Source: a virus
Taxonomy: Duplodnaviria > Heunggongvirae > Uroviricota > Caudoviricetes
IMG/VR virus record: IMGVR_UViG_3300045988_115574
Location: 1-21,111 of that record
Direction: 5' to 3' (one strand)
DNA: 21,111 nt
This document shows, piece after piece, positions 8,141-21,111 of this stretch. How positions within the stretch are numbered: the first letter of the stretch is position 1; the number at the start of each line of letters is the position of its first letter. Both the position numbers and the translations under genes were made by a program. The notes under the pieces are model-generated. The model made no database searches. It was not told the origin of the DNA and saw only the letters and a list, made by a program, of their open reading frames with translations.

Positions 8141-8383
8141 ATGACACACATGATCTTTCGTCATGGCGACATGAAGAAGTGGAAAGGCGTTGGCTACGAC
8201 TTTGAAATCGTGAAAGCCGAAGAGATTCAGGAATATCTGGATGCTGGTTGGTTTGCACATCCCGATGACCTTCTGAAGGACGTTGCAGAGCCAGAGCCAG
8301 AGCCAGAGCCAGAAGAAAAACAGCGTAAAAAGCCTGGTCGAAAACCTAAGGCGGCAGCAGATGAACCTGACAACGAAGGGTGA
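8141..8383 (+). CDS. hypothetical small protein with (EP)n repeat and a basic C-terminal tail, between coat and gp4
   Basis: ATG at 8141 with GGAGA 5 nt upstream. 80 aa, [80 protein letters not shown]. Overlaps the gp4 start by 23 nt. Confidence 0.5.
8288..8311 (+). repeat. perfect tandem hexanucleotide repeat (GAGCCA)x4 encoding EPEPEPEP
   Basis: Read directly: gagccagagccagagccagagcca inside the 8141-8383 ORF. Confidence 0.9.
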
Positions 8384-8861
8384 TTTAGTCCTTGCGGCAT
8401 TACGTAAGCTCGGTGTGGCATCAAATGCCACGTTAACAGATGTCGAACCGCAGTCTATGGAAGACGGCGTCAACGACCTTGAAATGATGATGGCTGAATG
8501 GCTTGGCGGTGATGCGTCACCTGGTATCAACGTTGGCTACATTTTTGCTGATGCAGATGTTGCTCCGGATCCGGGCGATGAGCACGGTTTATCAAATAAC
8601 GCTATCAATGCCGTCATTTTCAACCTTGCCTGCCGCATTGCTCCAGATTATGCGCTGGAAGCGTCTGCAAAACTTATAACCACTGCCAGATACGGGAAAG
8701 AGCGACTCGTCAAACTGTCTGCAATGGACAGAGCAAAAGCCGCTAAATGTAAGTCCGGTTATCCAAACCGTATGCCTGTTGGTAGCGGTAATCAGTTGGC
8801 GAAGTGGAACGGTTGGAATTACTTCCACCGGAAGGAACCTTGCGATAACGGGAGCGAATAA
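8361..8861 (+). CDS. 4: head completion / tail accessory protein gp4 homolog
   Basis: 166-aa ORF from ATG 8361: [47 protein letters not shown]..., matching P22 gp4 length and N-terminus as recalled. The longer TTG-initiated ORF from 8283 is rejected. Confidence 0.88.
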
Positions 8862-10280
8862 ATGCCGATTCAGCAACTTCCGCTTATGAAAGGTGTCGGC
8901 AAAGACTTTCGAAACGCCGACTATATCGACTATCTGCCAGTGAATATGCTGGCTACACCCAAAGAAATCCTCAACAGCAGCGGATATCTTCGCTCATTCC
9001 CGGGCATTGCCAAACGTTCTGATGTGAACGGTATATCGCGCGGCGTCGAGTACAACATGGCGCAGAGTGCTGTTTATCGCGTGTGTGGCGGCAAGCTGTA
9101 CAAAGGAGAAAGCGAAGTCGGTGACGTCGCCGGAAGTGGTCGCGTATCAATGGCGCATGGTCGAACATCACAGGCTGTAGGCGTTAATGGTCAACTGGTC
9201 GAGTATCGTTATGATGGCACGGTTAAAACCGTCTCAAACTGGCCTACAGACAGTGGATTCACGCAGTATGAGTTAGGTTCAGTTCGTGACATTACTCGCT
9301 TACGTGGGCGTTATGCGTGGTCAAAATACGGAACTGATTCATGGTTCATCACTGACCTTGAAGACGAATCACATCCTGACCGATACAGCGCACAATATCG
9401 TGCCGAGTCTCAGCCTGACGGTATCATCGGCATCGGAACATGGCGAGACTTCATTGTCTGCTTTGGTTCATCAACGATTGAATATTTCTCCCTGACGGGG
9501 GCAACCACCGTTGGTGCTGCTTTGTATGTCGCACAGCCATCACTGATGGTGCAAAAAGGCATCGCCGGAACTTACTGCAAAACGCCGTTTGCTGATTCCT
9601 ATGCGTTTATCAGCAATCCGGCAACAGGTGCGCCGTCTGTGTACATCATCGGTTCCGGTCAGGTATCACCAATCGCCAGCGCGAGCGTTGAGAAAATACT
9701 ACGCTCCTACACTGCTGATGAACTGGCTGATGGTGTGATGGAATCGCTGCGATTTGATGCTCATGAGTTGCTGATTATCCACCTTCCGCGTCACGTCCTC
9801 GTATACGACGCATCTTCAAGCGCCAATGGTCCGCAATGGTGTGTACTGAAAACTGGCTTGTATGACGATGTGTACCGCGCTATCGACTTCATTTACGAAG
9901 GCAATCAGATAACGTGCGGCGATAAGCTGGAGTCCGTGACCGGGAAATTGCAATTCGACATCAGCAGCCAGTACGACAAGCAACAGGAACACCTGCTGTT
10001 TACTCCGTTGTTCAAAGCGGATAACGCCAGAGTGTTCGACCTTGAGGTTGAGTCGTCAACTGGCGTTGCGCAGTATGCTGACCGCCTTTTTCTCTCTGCA
10101 ACCACTGACGGCATCAATTACGGGCGTGAGCAGATGATTGAGCAGAATGAACCGTTCGTTTACGACAAACGCGTTTTGTGGAAGCGTGTCGGGCGCATCA
10201 GGAAAAATGTCGGTTTCAAATTGCGCGTTATCACGAAGTCACCTGTCACTCTGTCTGGCTGCCAGATAAGGATTGAGTAA
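8862..10280 (+). CDS. 10: tail accessory protein gp10 homolog
   Basis: 472-aa ORF starting at the ATG immediately after the gp4 stop; same length and position as P22 gp10. Confidence 0.88.
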
Positions 10281-11233
10281 TGGCTGATTCGAATCTCAAT
10301 GAGCCGGTAATCATCCAGGCTACGCGGCTCGACACATCAGTCCTTCCGCGTAATATCTTCTCGCAGTCATATCTGCTGTACGTTATTGCACAGGGTGCTG
10401 ATGTTGGTAACGTGGCTAACAAGGCCAACGAAGCAGGGAAGGGGGCTTATGATGCACAGGTGAAGAATGATGAGCAGGATGTCACCCTTGCAGACCATGA
10501 ATCCAGAATTGAAGCTGCTGAATCAACTCTCATCAATCATGAACATAGAATTGCAGCAGCGGAAAGCACTCTTGCAGATCATGAAACAAGGATTACGGCT
10601 GCTGAAACAGAGCTGGCTGATCACGATACGCGAATTGCTGCCAATGAATCTGAGTTAGCAACCCATGATGCGCGCATAACTCAGAATACAACCGATATCG
10701 ACGCACTTGATACCAGGCTCACAGCGGCAGAAGGAAGTATTTCGACGCTACAAAGCACAGTTGGTGATCACTCAACAAGAATATCTGCGCTTGAGTATGC
10801 CACCACGCGCAAGAAATCAGAGGTTGTTTACTCAGGAGTATCTGTAACCATCCCGACAGCGCCGACCAACCTTGTTAGCCTGCTGAAAACGCTCACGCCG
10901 TCATCCGGCACATTGGCACCATTCTTCGACACCGTTAACAACAAGATGGTTGTGTTCAACGAGAACAAAACCCTGTTCTTCAAGCTGTCGATCGTCGGGA
11001 CGTGGCCCAGCGGAACCGCCAACAGGTCAATGCAGCTAACCTTTTCCGGCTCTGTTCCTGACACGTTGGTCAGCAGTCGTAATGCGGCGACAACAACCGA
11101 CAACATCCTGTTAGCTACGTTCTTCAGCGTGGATAAAGATGGCTTTCTTGCCTCAAATGGCAGTACGTTAACCATCCAGTCAAATGGTGCGGCGTTTACT
11201 GCCACAACCATCAAGATAATCGCGGAGCAGTGA
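10280..11233 (+). CDS. 26: tail needle protein (gp26 homolog) with extended repeat region and a distinct C-terminal domain
   Basis: N-terminal ~70 aa [68 protein letters not shown] match P22 gp26 as recalled. Then 14-residue tandem repeats and a ~140-aa C-terminal region absent from the 233-aa P22 protein; total 317 aa. Confidence 0.85.
10487..10696 (+). repeat. five tandem 42-bp (14-codon) repeats within the tail needle gene
   Basis: Protein repeats [14 protein letters not shown] / [14 protein letters not shown] / [14 protein letters not shown] / [14 protein letters not shown] / [14 protein letters not shown], with more degenerate copies continuing to about 10795. Confidence 0.8.
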
Positions 11234-11688
11234 TGATTCAGTTCAAACCAACGCGAAACATCGACCTGATCGAAGCAGTAGGAAATCACCCTGACATTAT
11301 CGCCGGGAGCAACAACGGCGATGGATACGACTACAAGTCTGAATGCCGTTACTTTGAGGTTAACGTGCACGGGCAGTTCGGCGGCATTGTTTACTATCAG
11401 GAGATTCAGCCGCTGACATTCGATTGCCACGCCATGTACCTGCCAGAGATTCGAGGCTTCAGCAAGGAAATCGGACTGTCGTTCTGGAGATACATTCTGA
11501 CTAACACCACCGTTCAGTGCGTCACATCGTTCGCTGCACGCAAATTCCGCCACGGTCAGATGTATTGCGCGATGATTGGCCTTAAGCGTGTAGGAACCAT
11601 CAAGAAATACTTCAAAGGCGTGGATGACGTGACTTTTTACAGCGCCACACGCGAAGAACTAATCGAATTCCTGAATCACGGGAGATAG
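11233..11688 (+). CDS. 14: gp14-position protein (virion assembly/ejection-associated in P22), assigned by synteny
   Basis: ORF between gp26 and gp7 as in P22. ATG at 11233 overlaps the gp26 stop (TGATG); an in-frame GTG at 11230 is an alternative start. I cannot recall the P22 gp14 sequence to confirm homology. Confidence 0.5.
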   Translation: MIQFKPTRNIDLIEAVGNHPDIIAGSNNGDGYDYKSECRYFEVNVHGQFGGIVYYQEIQPLTFDCHAMYLPEIRGFSKEIGLSFWRYILTNTTVQCVTSFAARKFRHGQMYCAMIGLKRVGTIKKYFKGVDDVTFYSATREELIEFLNHGR

Positions 11689-11690
11689 CC

Positions 11691-12383
11691 ATGTTATATG
11701 CATTTAAGCTGGGCAGAAAACTGCGCGGCGAGGAACCTTATTGCCCTGAAAAAGGCGGGAAAGGTGGCAGTTCTGATAAAAGCGCAAAGTATGCCGCAGA
11801 AGCCCAGAAGTATGCCGCAGACCTGCAAAATCAGCAGTTCAACACCATCATGAACAACCTGAAGCCGTTTACTCCTCTGGCTGATAAGTATGTCGGCAGC
11901 CTCGAGAACTTATCGTCTCTGGAAGGGCAAGGTCAGGCACTTAACCAGTATTACAACTCTCAGCAGTACAAAGATCTTGCTGGTCAGGCTCGCTATCAGA
12001 GTCTGGCGGCAGCGGAAGCAACAGGTGGATTGGGTTCCACTGCAACCGGTAATCAGTTAGCAACAATCGCACCAACGCTTGGTCAGCAATGGCTATCTGG
12101 TCAGATGAACAACTACCAGAATCTGGCAAATATTGGTCTTGGCGCACTGCAAGGTCAGGCAAACGCCGGGCAAACATATGCCAACAATATGAGTCAGATT
12201 TCGCAGCAAAGTGCGGCTCTTGCAGCGGCAAATGCCAACAGACCATCAGCAATGCAATCTGCTATTGGCGGAGGTGCGTCTGGTGCTATTGCTGGGGCCG
12301 GACTTGCGAAATTAATTGGTTCATCAACTCCGTGGGGGGCTGCGATCGGCGGCGGTCTTGGTCTGCTTGGCTCGTTGTTTTAA
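11691..12383 (+). CDS. 7: ejection (E) protein gp7 homolog
   Basis: 230-codon ORF (P22 gp7 is 229 aa) with GGAGA SD. Q/N/G/A-rich low-complexity sequence with glycine-rich hydrophobic C-terminus. Position after gp14. Confidence 0.85.
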   Translation: MLYAFKLGRKLRGEEPYCPEKGGKGGSSDKSAKYAAEAQKYAADLQNQQFNTIMNNLKPFTPLADKYVGSLENLSSLEGQGQALNQYYNSQQYKDLAGQARYQSLAAAEATGGLGSTATGNQLATIAPTLGQQWLSGQMNNYQNLANIGLGALQGQANAGQTYANNMSQISQQSAALAAANANRPSAMQSAIGGGASGAIAGAGLAKLIGSSTPWGAAIGGGLGLLGSLF

Positions 12384-15669: not shown

Positions 15670-16236
15670 TTATTTTATAGTTTTTATGAATTCTTTATTA
15701 AATCCCTTAGCTTCTCCGGGGTATCTTCCAAAGACAATTTTTATAAAAACAGAAAAAATAAAGATAGCAACGCTTAACAACAGTTGCAGTATCATTGGAA
15801 CCCAAAGAACTACAGGCTCTATATTCATGAAACCAAATATTCTTCCGGCGATCATGGCGAAGTACCACACTGTTATCAGCAAACTTAGTGGCATATGAAT
15901 TACTGATATTACCAATCCAAGAGCATCAGTAATTCTATTTTCAAATTTTTCAGGGGAAAACTTTTCTTTAAGGTAATTCAGTGCGCAGGTCTCATTCTCT
16001 GGATTTTCAGCATTTTTCCCTATAGCAATAGAAATCTCAGATATCCTTGATTCAATTCTTTTGCGTTTAATAAAACTAGAAAAAAAGAACCACGCAATCT
16101 GCAACCCTATCCCCATAAATAGAGTTGCGGCAACTAGCACAGCGTAACTCATAGAATCAGACACACCAACCTCTTTAGTTTTTCTAGTTACTTTGTCACG
16201 ATAGGATATGCGAATTGATAAAACTAAATTGCGCAC
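15670..16236 (-). CDS. AT-rich gene for a 3-TM inner-membrane protein in the position of P22 sieA (superinfection exclusion); start uncertain (GTG 16236, or internal GTG/ATG near 16170-16152)
   Basis: Minus-strand ORF convergent with gp16 (22-nt gap). Three hydrophobic helices ([74 protein letters not shown]) separated by a ~50-aa charged loop. Local GC is far below the structural genes. Confidence 0.6.
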
Positions 16237-16381: not shown

Positions 16382-16963
16382 CTATCTAAACGTTGCACAC
16401 GACTCATCTATCCATTTTTCATAAAATTGTATACCGAGATAGGCAAGAACAGATGGATGTATATCAACAAGCTTTTCGCCAAGATGTTCTGTTGGAGGTG
16501 GATAATCTTTGCCTTGGTTTCTTACGGTTATAGGCATAGTTGTTGCTGGATGAAACTCAACTATCATAGGGTCGCCTTCGTATTTTGCTATTTTCCCTGT
16601 TGAATCAATGATTAACTCTTTAATATAATGGCTTCTTGCTCCCGGAAATGCCCCAAGAGTAGTATAAGGAGGTTCAAGTTTTGAGATTTCCATAGTGGAA
16701 TGATGATCAGCATTTCTTGCTTGGTGAAGGTAAGCAAGTGTTTTGTCTGTTTTTCTAAGCATGAACTTTTGGTTGAAGTGGCTGCTAAATTTTCCACTAA
16801 CCGGCTTTGTTGCACAGAGCAACTTACTGAAAGACTTTTCTATATGCCCAAGACATTCTCGCCAGTGCATTTCAAAATCATCATGGTTTGTAGATGATTT
16901 CATCTGCTCTAGGCACTTTTTAGCTGCGATGATTTCTTTTTTTGCTGGGTTGTAATCGATCAT
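16382..16963 (-). CDS. hypothetical 193-aa soluble protein, translationally coupled to mnt (hkcC-like position in P22 immI)
   Basis: ATG at 16963-16961 overlaps the mnt stop (ATGA on the minus strand). SD aagga 9 nt upstream. AT-rich. No motif I can assign. Confidence 0.65.
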   Translation of the reverse strand: MIDYNPAKKEIIAAKKCLEQMKSSTNHDDFEMHWRECLGHIEKSFSKLLCATKPVSGKFSSHFNQKFMLRKTDKTLAYLHQARNADHHSTMEISKLEPPYTTLGAFPGARSHYIKELIIDSTGKIAKYEGDPMIVEFHPATTMPITVRNQGKDYPPPTEHLGEKLVDIHPSVLAYLGIQFYEKWIDESCATFR

Positions 16964-18537: not shown

Positions 18538-20511
18538 ATGACAGACATTACAGCCAATGTGATCGTATCGATGCCTTCGCAACTCTTCACTATGGCTCGT
18601 TCTTTTAAAGCCGTAGCTAATGGCAAAATTTATATCGGTAAAATTGACACTGACCCGGTAAATCCTGAAAACCAGATTCAGGTTTATGTGGAGAACGAAG
18701 ACGGCTCTCACGTTCCTGTTTCACAACCAATCATCATTAACGCCGCTGGTTACCCTGTATATAACGGACAGATTACCAAGTTCGTTACTGTGCAAGGCCA
18801 TTCTATGGCTGTATATGACCAATATGGTTCCCAGCAATTTTATTTTCCGAATATTCTAAAATACGACCCTGATCAGCTACAACTACGACTGTCATCTCCT
18901 GATGGCTTTAAATTAATAGGCCAGTGCGATAGTTTTGACGAACTGCGTTCTATTGTTCCGGAGCTTGAAGGCCAGAGGATTTTGTTAAAAGGCTGGCATT
19001 CTGGATCCCTGTTGGGCGGTGGTGAGTTTATCGCAAAGGCGACCTCTGATTTAGATGATGGAGGTGTTGTCGCTGGTAGTGGTGCTCTGAAGTGGGTTCG
19101 CTCTGCATTCGATATAACACCAGAGGATTTTGGTGTTACGCCATCTGATACGGATACTTTGTATGGACTTCAGGGGGCGGTTAATGCAGCATCAAAATTT
19201 GGTGTTCGCGTTATCATAACTGAAGAAATGGTATATCCAATTTCTGATAACATAGTTGTTCCTAGTAATGTGACTATGGAATGGCTGAAACCATCATTTA
19301 TTACGCTAACTGCCAAATCAACTCTTGGTGGAGTGATTGCTGTGCTTGGGACTTATAGCAACCCTGTTGACAATGTGCGTTTCATTAATCCACATATAGA
19401 TGGTGGGAATATTGGTTATCCTACGTATGATGTGCAAGGTGAAAATGGTATCAGCGGTAGTAAATGCAGAAACGTTTTGTCGATTGGTGGCGTGATACGT
19501 AACTGCCGCAGAGGTTCGTCATCGCAATACTCATCAGGCGGGAAGGCGTTTAATTGGGAATACGGCGTTGATAATATAAGAATTGAAGGTGCAAAAGTTG
19601 AAAGTTGCTCATCAGCATTTGAATTTGTTGGTCGTGAAAATGGTGTTGGCGAATGGACTACTGCAACAGACGTTCACTACTATAATTGTTCCGCTGAGAA
19701 CTGTGATCGAGTGATAAGAAACGTCAGAGAAATGGTGACACCAAGCTATGCTACAGATATTTCGTTCGGTAGTTTCAAAGATATCTACGCGCTAAACTGC
19801 GGGTTGGGATCAGTGCCGGGTAAGGAGTTAGACGAGGGGTTGGTATTGCTGGATCGCTCAGCGGATATTGATGTTGAGCTCACCGCAATGAATTCTGCCA
19901 ACTACGGCACGATTGACAGCCCACTGAGAGTAAGAAGAGGGTACAACAACAAAATCAACATAATGTTTAATGGCGTATGCCGTGTCGATGTTAACCTTAA
20001 AGGACCCAATAACGCTCAACCAAGTGGTGAGTTACGTGGCAACCATATCAATATCCAGCATATCGGGGCGTGCACCAATATCGTTGATATAACACATGGT
20101 GATAACAAGATTATAGGTAACCACATTTCAATTACAGCAGGTACTCTTATTGGCAATTTATTAACAGATTCTTGTGATGCACAACCGCAAATTGTAACTG
20201 TGACGAACGGTGTTTCTGGAGTTTCAGTATCAGGATCTCTGAATGATATTTTTGATAATTTTAATGGAGGATTTCCAAGTGGTACGTCTGCAACAACAAT
20301 TGGTAATGTAAGGATAAATAGTACCTCTTTTTCGTTTTCAAATGATAGCACAAGATTGTTAAGCTCGAACAGACTGCGGCTTGGGTCTTATGACACCGAC
20401 AAGATTGAGTTGACTAACCTCTCAATGAAACTCACTCTTCCTACTTCAGCTACCGGTCTGGCGAGTGGTGAATGTTACTGGAATAATAACGTACTAACGC
20501 GAGTTCCGTAA
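18538..20511 (+). CDS. 9: tailspike protein: P22 gp9-type N-terminal head-binding domain fused to a different receptor-binding domain
   Basis: 657-aa ORF with GGAG 9 nt upstream. First ~110 aa [60 protein letters not shown]...LKYDPDQ match the P22 tailspike N-terminal domain as recalled; the rest does not resemble the P22 endorhamnosidase domain. Confidence 0.9.
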
Positions 20512-20546: not shown

Positions 20547-21111
20547 TCACTCCACCTTTTCATCAAGCCAATCCGCCCACCACTGCATCATCTCCCTGCG
20601 TTTATCGAGATACTGAGCATGGTTGTAAATCCCACGCACAGATCCGCCGTTGGCATGTGCCAGTTGCACTTCAATAGCGTCAGCAGGCCATTCGTGCTCG
20701 TTCATAATTGTGCTGAATTCATGCCTGAACCCGTGACCGCTTTCCAGACCCTCATAGCCGATTCGTTTGATCACAAGTAATACCGCGTTCTCGCAGATTG
20801 GCTTCTTCTTATCGTTACGCCCGGCAAAAACAAACTCTGATACTGGTTTGGTGATGGAGCTTAACGTAGTGAGAAGTTCAACCACCTGGTCCGACATCGG
20901 GACCACATGAATCTTGCGTCCCTTCATCACACTGGCGTCGATAGTGATAATCCTGTTTTCAAAATCGACGTTATTCCATAGCATAGAACGAAGCTCTTTC
21001 GTTCTTAGGGCTGTGTAGCGTAAAACTTTGGTCGCAATGAGAGATACAATACTTCCTGAAAATGTTGCCAGTGCTTTGTTGAATGCCGGGATCTGGTCTG
21101 CAGGAAGAAAC
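20547..21111 (-). CDS. int: tyrosine recombinase / phage integrase, C-terminal catalytic part (N-terminus beyond the window)
   Basis: Minus-strand frame is open from the window edge to the stop at 20549-20547. Translation ...LRYTALRTKELRSMLWNNVDFEN...HGFRHEFSTIMNEHEWPADAIEVQLAHANGGSVRGIYNHAQYLDKRREMMQWWADWLDEKVE carries the conserved Arg, His-x-x-Arg and Tyr of tyrosine integrases. Confidence 0.9.
   Translation of the reverse strand, partial: FLPADQIPAFNKALATFSGSIVSLIATKVLRYTALRTKELRSMLWNNVDFENRIITIDASVMKGRKIHVVPMSDQVVELLTTLSSITKPVSEFVFAGRNDKKKPICENAVLLVIKRIGYEGLESGHGFRHEFSTIMNEHEWPADAIEVQLAHANGGSVRGIYNHAQYLDKRREMMQWWADWLDEKVE

Follow-up and report, generated by a model that had tools for sequence, protein, structure and literature searches.

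An HS1-type tail needle of a P22-like Escherichia coli prophage, with histidine-containing two-heptad units in its 16-heptad shaft

The stretch of viral DNA analysed here (Caudoviricetes, 21,111 nucleotides, hereafter the window) encodes a protein that the original prediction, made from the sequence alone, described as a tail needle with a P22-like N-terminus, five tandem histidine-containing repeats and a C-terminal domain different from that of P22. The questions raised by this locus are which needle it encodes, whether the repeat is real and able to change the length of the needle, and what the regularly spaced histidines may do. With great confidence, the gene can be said to encode a trimeric tail needle of the kind published for HS1, carried here by a P22-like E. 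coli prophage, and nothing was found against the identification as a tail needle. The architecture, not recognised in the original prediction as a published one, is already known, as the combination of 317 residues, 16 heptads and a knob is that of the published HS1 needle, and the gene is an allele of it, with glutamate-binding residues that also agree with Leavitt 2013. The positions of the features are collected in Table 1.

Table 1. Features of the tail needle locus in the window.
Feature	Position (nt)	Strand	Details and source
gp10-type tail hub (channel plugged by the needle)	8862..10280	+	PF11134, E 2e-299
Tail needle gene	10280..11233	+	317 codons and TGA stop; ORF list
N-terminal virion-binding (plug) domain, aa 1-62, gp26 family	10280..10465	+	5BU5, 2POH, phrog_1219
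Shaft heptad 1, NDEQDVT, aa 63-69, NxxQD motif	10466..10486	+	sequence; PMC13580157
Five 42-bp / 14-residue two-heptad units, aa 70-139	10487..10696	+	translation, repeat analysis
Unit 1	10487-10528	+	
Unit 2	10529-10570	+	
Unit 3	10571-10612	+	
Unit 4	10613-10654	+	
Unit 5	10655-10696	+	
Final five shaft heptads, aa 140-174	10697..10801	+	includes the sixth d-position His, H164 (codon 10769-10771)
Sf6/HS1-type knob, aa 175-317, TNF-like jellyroll	10802..11230	+	PF16532, 4K6B, Foldseek
DUF2824 gene, downstream neighbour	11233..11688	+	Pfam / phrog scan

The ATG of the needle gene overlaps the stop codon of the gp10 tail-hub gene (472 aa) upstream; at the other end, its own stop runs into the start codon (ATG, 11233) of the DUF2824 gene. 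The latter is followed by the gp7 gene (Pfam P22_gp7), by a 471-aa ORF assigned to the gp20 position from its place in the gene order, and by the gene of a gp16-like DNA transfer protein; farther along are found a SieA-like gene, an antirepressor, a tailspike with a P22 head-binding domain and an integrase fragment. The order gp10, needle and ejection-protein genes is the one expected for a gp26-family needle, and the neighbourhood is a typical P22-like late operon. Two minus-strand genes (15670-16236 and 16382-16963) lie between the gp16-like gene and the antirepressor; one of them encodes a SieA-like superinfection exclusion protein (phrog_7745, E 2e-108), and the other a 193-aa protein belonging to phrog_23516, with no Pfam match. 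Also observed in the window were a perfect hexanucleotide tandem repeat, CAGAGC in 4.7 copies (8286-8313, 100% matches), located roughly where the gp4-like ORF begins (8283..8861), and a 21-bp unit present twice (11780-11821, 90% matches) within the P22_gp7 ejection-protein gene, where the duplicated peptide reads ...SAKYAAEAQKYAAD.... In a 145-aa ORF on the minus strand (20547-20984), similarity to the phage integrase catalytic-domain profile is limited to profile positions 44-170, and the ORF may represent a truncated integrase located where the prophage ends.

A copy of the gene in the E. coli CM2 prophage, 99.4% identical and flanked by genes in the same order, carries the annotation 'tail needle knob protein', the name that the NCBI annotation pipeline gives to close copies in the listed complete E. 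coli genomes. The gene was matched in 923 of the 5426 complete E. coli genomes, 164 of which with at least 80% coverage of the gene, and among protein clusters built at 90% identity the nearest one, which shares 97% identity with the full-length protein, has 1430 member sequences, which may or may not include the HS1 needle itself. As for the 21,111 bp as a whole, the share covered by any complete E. coli genome stays within 81%, at 96-97% identity, and the best placements are joins of 6-9 aligned pieces, so that the prophage late region is a mosaic.

The protein matches phrog_1219, 'tail needle protein', and begins with the conserved plug domain of about 60 residues of the gp26 family. In fact, residues 1-79 align without gaps to the HK620 needle 5BU5 (E 7e-40 for this stretch), and the match to P22 gp26 2POH (E 5e-42) is located at residues 1-150, which bears out the P22-like N-terminus read from the sequence. 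At the other end, the prediction of about 143 residues distinct from the P22 tip, possibly a knob, was also correct. The match to PF16532 (Sf6-type phage tail needle knob) covers the full profile, 1-175, and scores 355.2 bits where the cutoff is 27; residues 165-317 are identical to the crystallised HS1 knob 4K6B at 150 of 153 positions (E 1e-89), and the Sf6 knob 3RWN is matched with E 8e-89. A Foldseek search with the predicted knob returned 4K6B and 3RWN at the top (target-normalised TM 0.86-0.87), then C1q, TNF, EDA and PRD1 P5, and the predicted structure has the TNF-like jellyroll of Sf6-type knobs. In the alignment, every residue published as an L-glutamate contact of HS1 (E181, K235, S283, D285, L290 and K312) is found here under the same number, as is the distal S266-R267-N268 triad; both features of the HS1 knob are described in Leavitt 2013 (PMC3741392). 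A P22-type tip, that is, the triple beta-helix and inverted coiled coil of P22 gp26 aa 141-233, was not found: no P22 or HK620 chain shown reaches the knob, aa 175-317, the alignment being limited to the N-terminal tip and shaft, and the C-terminus of P22 has no match in this region. HK620, mentioned originally as a bearer of such a knob, has instead a P22-type tip and no knob.

Between plug and knob, codon 70 begins at nt 10487, and from there five consecutive 42-bp units were found, up to nt 10696, as had been predicted. Their consensus in this gene is L-A-[D/N]-H-E-x-R-I-x-A-[A/N]-E-x-x, with a mean pairwise amino-acid identity of 0.56. The best-offset unit identity was 0.57, compared to 0.12 in residue shuffles of the shaft and 0.30 in shuffles keeping the composition of the heptad positions, and in either control none of 2000 shuffles reached the observed value. 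Unit 5 is degenerate, with 29-50% identity to the others. At DNA level the units have a mean identity of 55% and their longest shared exact run is 9 nt; Tandem Repeats Finder, run on the window, did not report the 42-bp repeat since the units are too diverged as DNA, and for the same reason the repeat is shown at protein level. A repeat search of the DNA, on the other hand, found four copies spaced by 42 bp and, in addition, the sixth His heptad. Thus, the claim that the repeats are tandem in the DNA holds for ancient and diverged units, but not for a DNA tandem repeat of the usual kind: the 42-bp units are a protein-level repeat, tandem as DNA only as an ancient, diverged duplication. The same consensus emerges from 124 distinct units of homologues, where position g is R in 100%, position a is I in 95% and position e is E in 87%.

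The silence of Tandem Repeats Finder, together with the presence in the ORF list of a 241-aa antisense ORF, could be taken to mean that the repeat is due to chance or low complexity, or that the true gene is on the opposite strand (10828..11553). This is next to impossible, and we consider it refuted by the matches of the plus-strand product to solved structures (E 1e-89) and to Pfam (355 bits) and by a repeat that stands above all 2000 shuffles in both controls; moreover, the units are conserved across hundreds of homologues. The antisense ORF (10828-11553, minus strand), which overlaps the knob-coding region and the DUF2824 gene, is most likely spurious.

The shaft, aa 63-174, consists of 16 uninterrupted heptads running from N63 to A174, a long shaft such as gp26-family needles have. 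In order, position a is occupied by N, L, I, L, I, L, I, L, I, L, I, I, L, I, V and I, with L, I or V at all a positions from 70 to 168, and position d by Q, H, A, H, A, H, A, H, N, H, N, L, A, L, H and L. The hydrophobicity of the shaft has a dominant period of 7, and AF2 models a single continuous helix at aa 42-175 (pLDDT 93-98 over aa 61-160); this model is a monomer, silent on the residues facing the trimer axis. These data agree with the reading of each 14-residue unit as two heptads of a long coiled-coil shaft. Weak PDB matches to the reovirus sigma-1 coiled coil (E about 3e-4) and matches below threshold to Pfam coiled-coil families were rejected as generic coiled-coil similarity.

The register could be anchored on P22 gp26, in which the NxxQD motif, with N63 at a, Q66 at d and D67 at e, coordinates Ca2+ (PMC13580157), and I133 occupies position a in a structure-based table (PMC4786415). 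Exactly 10 heptads separate the anchors N63/Q66 and I133, and the alignments of the window protein with HK620 up to residue 79 and with the P22-derived chain 4LIN up to residue 122 have no gaps, so that this register is not an arbitrary choice. Both the register and the identity of the three domains are shown by the analysis. It follows from the register that the histidines at unit residue 4 (aa 73, 87, 101, 115 and 129), as well as H164 in the sixth His heptad (VGDHSTR, aa 161-167), which stands apart from the five-unit array, occupy the core position d, whereas the alternate d positions of the units are A80, A94, A108, N122 and N136. The single register supposed for the histidines is therefore real, and, judging from their position in the heptads, they probably face the trimer axis.

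Other details of the histidine pattern had to be revised. A His or an HxH had been expected in each unit: a His is found in all five, but HxH occurs only in unit 2 (H87, H89), where H89 is at the exposed position f and varies in relatives, which have H, E, Q, N or A at this site, so that it is not a conserved feature. Also the stacked His rings did not hold, since from one His layer to the next there are 14 residues, or about 21 Å, and layers of I(a), A(d) and L(a) come in between; the His layers recur periodically but each is isolated.

It might still be supposed that these d-position histidines bind metal or other ions, or sense pH; in the second case protonation would loosen the coiled coil and help to trigger needle release or membrane penetration. 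Their place at d in the structure-anchored register would suit this role, as would the flanking D/N (c) and E (e), and in an alignment down to 72% identity, with relatives from Klebsiella and Serratia, conservation is at least 90% for each of H73, H87, H101 and H129. Trimeric coiled coils designed with His in the core are able to bind Cu(II) or Ni(II), but in the same study a single His layer, at a or d, did not prevent the designed peptides from folding and Co, Cu, Ni and Zn were without effect, and metal-dependent folding was obtained only with an adjacent a+d His pair, in a peptide that was unfolded until Cu or Ni was added (PMC6713864); here, instead, the layers are single and distant. Moreover, the number of His layers varies, with one in HK620 and two in P22 in the shaft stretches shown and 3-8 in other natural needles, and thus no fixed set of His is required. 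The documented core ion sites of the gp26 family are different ones, namely NxxQD with Ca2+ (PMC13580157) and layers of N at d, especially N(d)T, which hold a central anion in such cores. Both are present in the window shaft, which carries N63/Q66/D67, N122 and N136-T137, and these would be, on sequence grounds, its better-documented sites for Ca2+ (N63/Q66/D67) and for the anion (the N-at-d layers). Against a sensor count also the melting of gp26-family needles at 85-95 °C and the pH-dependent change reported for P22 gp26, which affects its N-terminal tip and leaves the helical core aside. Literature searches on histidine in gp26 returned nothing on His layers. All considered, we regard ion binding or pH sensing by these histidines as very improbable. 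Slightly more doubtful still is the idea that the conserved and evenly spaced d-layer His, of which a needle has 3-8, act as a graded element responding to pH or metal, which would modulate how stiff or stable the coiled coil is after the released needle has reached the periplasm and would be tuned, together with the reach of the needle, by gain and loss of repeats under selection from host envelope or defences.

Needles of this family differ markedly in length. The best 120 homologues measured 254, 268, 282, 289, 296, 303, 310, 317, 331, 338 and 345 aa, with shafts of 7-20 heptads carrying 3-8 His at d. The steps in the shaft are nearly always of 14 or 28 residues (two or four heptads), and apart from a few exceptions (285, 298, 309 and 316 aa) nearly all lengths are in heptad phase. 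Needles of P22-like phages have been reported to be 220-320 Å long, with 11-16 heptads (PMC3741392), and the natural shaft range observed here, 7-20 heptads, exceeds this. Some unusual variants were also noted: in P0055 (309 aa) a 27-residue insertion breaks the heptad phase, in P0078 (298 aa) 16 residues are duplicated inside the conserved plug domain, and P0061 (394 aa, Shigella sonnei) has a gp4-like N-terminus (PF11650) fused to the needle at about residue 56.

Two homologues are directly related to the window allele: P0001 (345 aa) corresponds to it with an 84-bp tandem duplication of units 1-2, and P0042 (289 aa) to the same allele without those 84 bp. Both junctions, +84 and -84, fall within CTTGCAGA(C/T)CATGAA, which is common to units 1 and 3, the most similar pair of units. 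Tandem Repeats Finder reported 84-bp arrays in two longer alleles, with 2.5 copies (93% matches) and 3.3 copies (98%). In shafts of the Sf6 type a different 28-residue module, present 0, 1, 2 or 3 times, gives needles of 254, 282, 310 and 338 aa, and it is this module that, as DNA, forms the array of 3.3 copies. The length alleles and the repeat are observed in nature, and the reciprocal +84/-84-bp alleles, compared as sequences, point to in-register recombination between units as the source of length alleles, that is, as a process altering needle length. The original prediction had anticipated this effect of recombination and suggested the comparison of copy number among relatives, which indeed revealed in-register gain and loss of units. 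The 9 nt shared in this gene are short for RecA-type recombination, and for this reason the mechanism that produced the two alleles can only be inferred; a phage recombinase, slippage or microhomology may be involved.

Since many length alleles coexist and reciprocal ones exist, needle length could be adaptively tuned to tailspike size or O-antigen thickness, or diversified against defences such as Tai. To evaluate the coupling with the tailspike, a census of 189 loci was considered, in which the window was joined by 184 IMG/VR contigs and by four reference loci. The needle was of 282 aa in 103 loci and of 317 aa in 82, and alleles of 254, 289, 338 and 345 aa were found once each; a locus scan seeded with a 254-aa needle gave almost only 282-aa alleles, so that the short classes are unsampled. 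In 116 of the 189 loci the tailspike was also complete, and these tailspikes form 83 clusters. The 317-aa needle pairs with 31 tailspike clusters (478-825 aa) and the 282-aa needle with 56 (446-901 aa), while 6 of the 22 multi-member tailspike clusters hold more than one needle length. At cluster level the median tailspike was of 690 aa with the 317-aa needle and of 652 aa with the 282-aa needle, a weak trend towards longer tailspikes with the longer needle that is not significant (Mann-Whitney p = 0.055, uncorrected for relatedness). No firm coupling of needle length to tailspike type is therefore observed. The tailspike of the window itself (18538-20511, plus strand) is recognised by Pfam only in its N-terminal head-binding domain, aa 1-113, and its receptor-binding part is a singleton among the 83 clusters.

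Further support for selection on the needle comes from mutations of P22 and HK620 escaping TaiEcC, which map to gp26 (PMC11364771), and from a difference in K+ release between hybrids that Leavitt 2013 (PMC3741392) ascribed to shaft residues. However, the Tai escape mutations spare the shaft repeats and lie towards the C-terminus, in the C-terminal region, of needles that are P22-type (PMC11364771), each main needle length pairs with dozens of tailspike types, and two lengths alone dominate the census. An adaptive tuning or diversification of needle length is, for these reasons, rather unlikely, although clearly less so than a sensor made of histidines.

Returning to the HS1-type needle with two-heptad units, its architecture may be described as follows. 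Each 14-residue unit would be a building block of the shaft, with heptad A, L(a)-x-[D/N]-H(d)-E-x-R(g), and heptad B, I(a)-x-A-[A/N](d)-E(e)-x-x, such that at d a bulky, polar His would alternate with a small Ala (or Asn). The stretch R(g)-I-x-x-A-E(e) would fit the R-h-x-x-h-E trimerisation motif, which, as Kammerer reportedly described in 2005, includes a g-to-e' salt bridge. We infer these salt bridges and the trimeric state, like the direction of the His towards the axis, and the functions given below would be those of related needles. As the units are homologous, in-register recombination or slippage could add or remove blocks of two or four heptads, and this would change the length of the needle leaving the heptad phase intact.

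By analogy with P22, Sf6 and HS1, residues 1-62 would plug the channel of the gp10 tail hub after DNA packaging and retain the genome, which is the role documented for the needle base (PMC3741392). Residues 63-174 may form a three-stranded coiled coil of about 166 Å reaching past the tailspikes, and residues 175-317 the TNF-like knob, which by the same analogy would bind three L-glutamates. The tip would be expected to affect the rate of DNA delivery and not the host range: when the HS1 or the Sf6 knob was swapped into P22 the host range was unchanged, mutations in the glutamate site did not visibly affect virion function, and changes of the tip slowed K+ release, suggesting that the needle controls the kinetics of DNA delivery (PMC3741392).

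The value of this analysis is mainly the correct annotation of the gene, which is a near-copy of a needle with a crystallised knob and an already described 16-heptad shaft. What is added is the range of 7-20 heptads in natural shafts, the reciprocal +84/-84-bp alleles and the assignment of the conserved His to position d. The finding of one needle length with dozens of tailspike types implies that length is not simply matched to the tailspike, and the conserved core histidines are a testable detail of coiled-coil design.

The comparison with known systems places the window needle closest to HS1. It has been reported that the HS1 needle has a virion-binding N-terminus, a coiled-coil core of 16 heptads, compared to 11 in Sf6 and P22, and a knob that shares 99% identity with the Sf6 knob and ends at residue 317 (PMC3741392). 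The needle of the E. coli HS prophage (EcHS_A0316, 4K6B) is likewise of 317 aa, with a 16-heptad shaft and an Sf6-type knob, and it is by the 317 residues and the 16-heptad core that the window needle is recognised as a long needle of this type. The numbering of the residues in the glutamate and phosphate sites is identical in the two proteins, and over the crystallised aa 165-317 the only differences are T166/S, A269/S and S292/T. Sf6 gp9 (282 aa, 3RWN) also shares the N-terminal plug and the knob (E 8e-89), and its shaft (P0080-type) has His-containing heptads of the same kind, but of its own it carries the 28-residue module IAQNESD IASLDTR VQSLESQ VSDHETR, and it has 11 heptads instead of 16; the shafts of Sf6 and HS1 are only 67% identical (PMC3741392). 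P22 gp26 (2POH, 3C9I) and the HK620 needle (5BU5) are similar to the window needle in the plug, the NxxQD Ca2+ motif, the LADHExRI heptads and the His at d; however, in the shaft stretches shown HK620 has one His heptad and P22 two, compared to six here, and their C-terminus is a triple beta-helix followed by an inverted coiled coil instead of a knob. Designed coiled coils with His in the core (HisA, HisD and HisAD; TRI, IZ) share with the window needle the placing of His at a or d, but they are short and need adjacent His at a and d to bind metal (PMC6713864), whereas the window needle, as read from its heptads, would carry single d layers of His, one every 14 residues within the five-unit array, in a natural fibre of 16 heptads.
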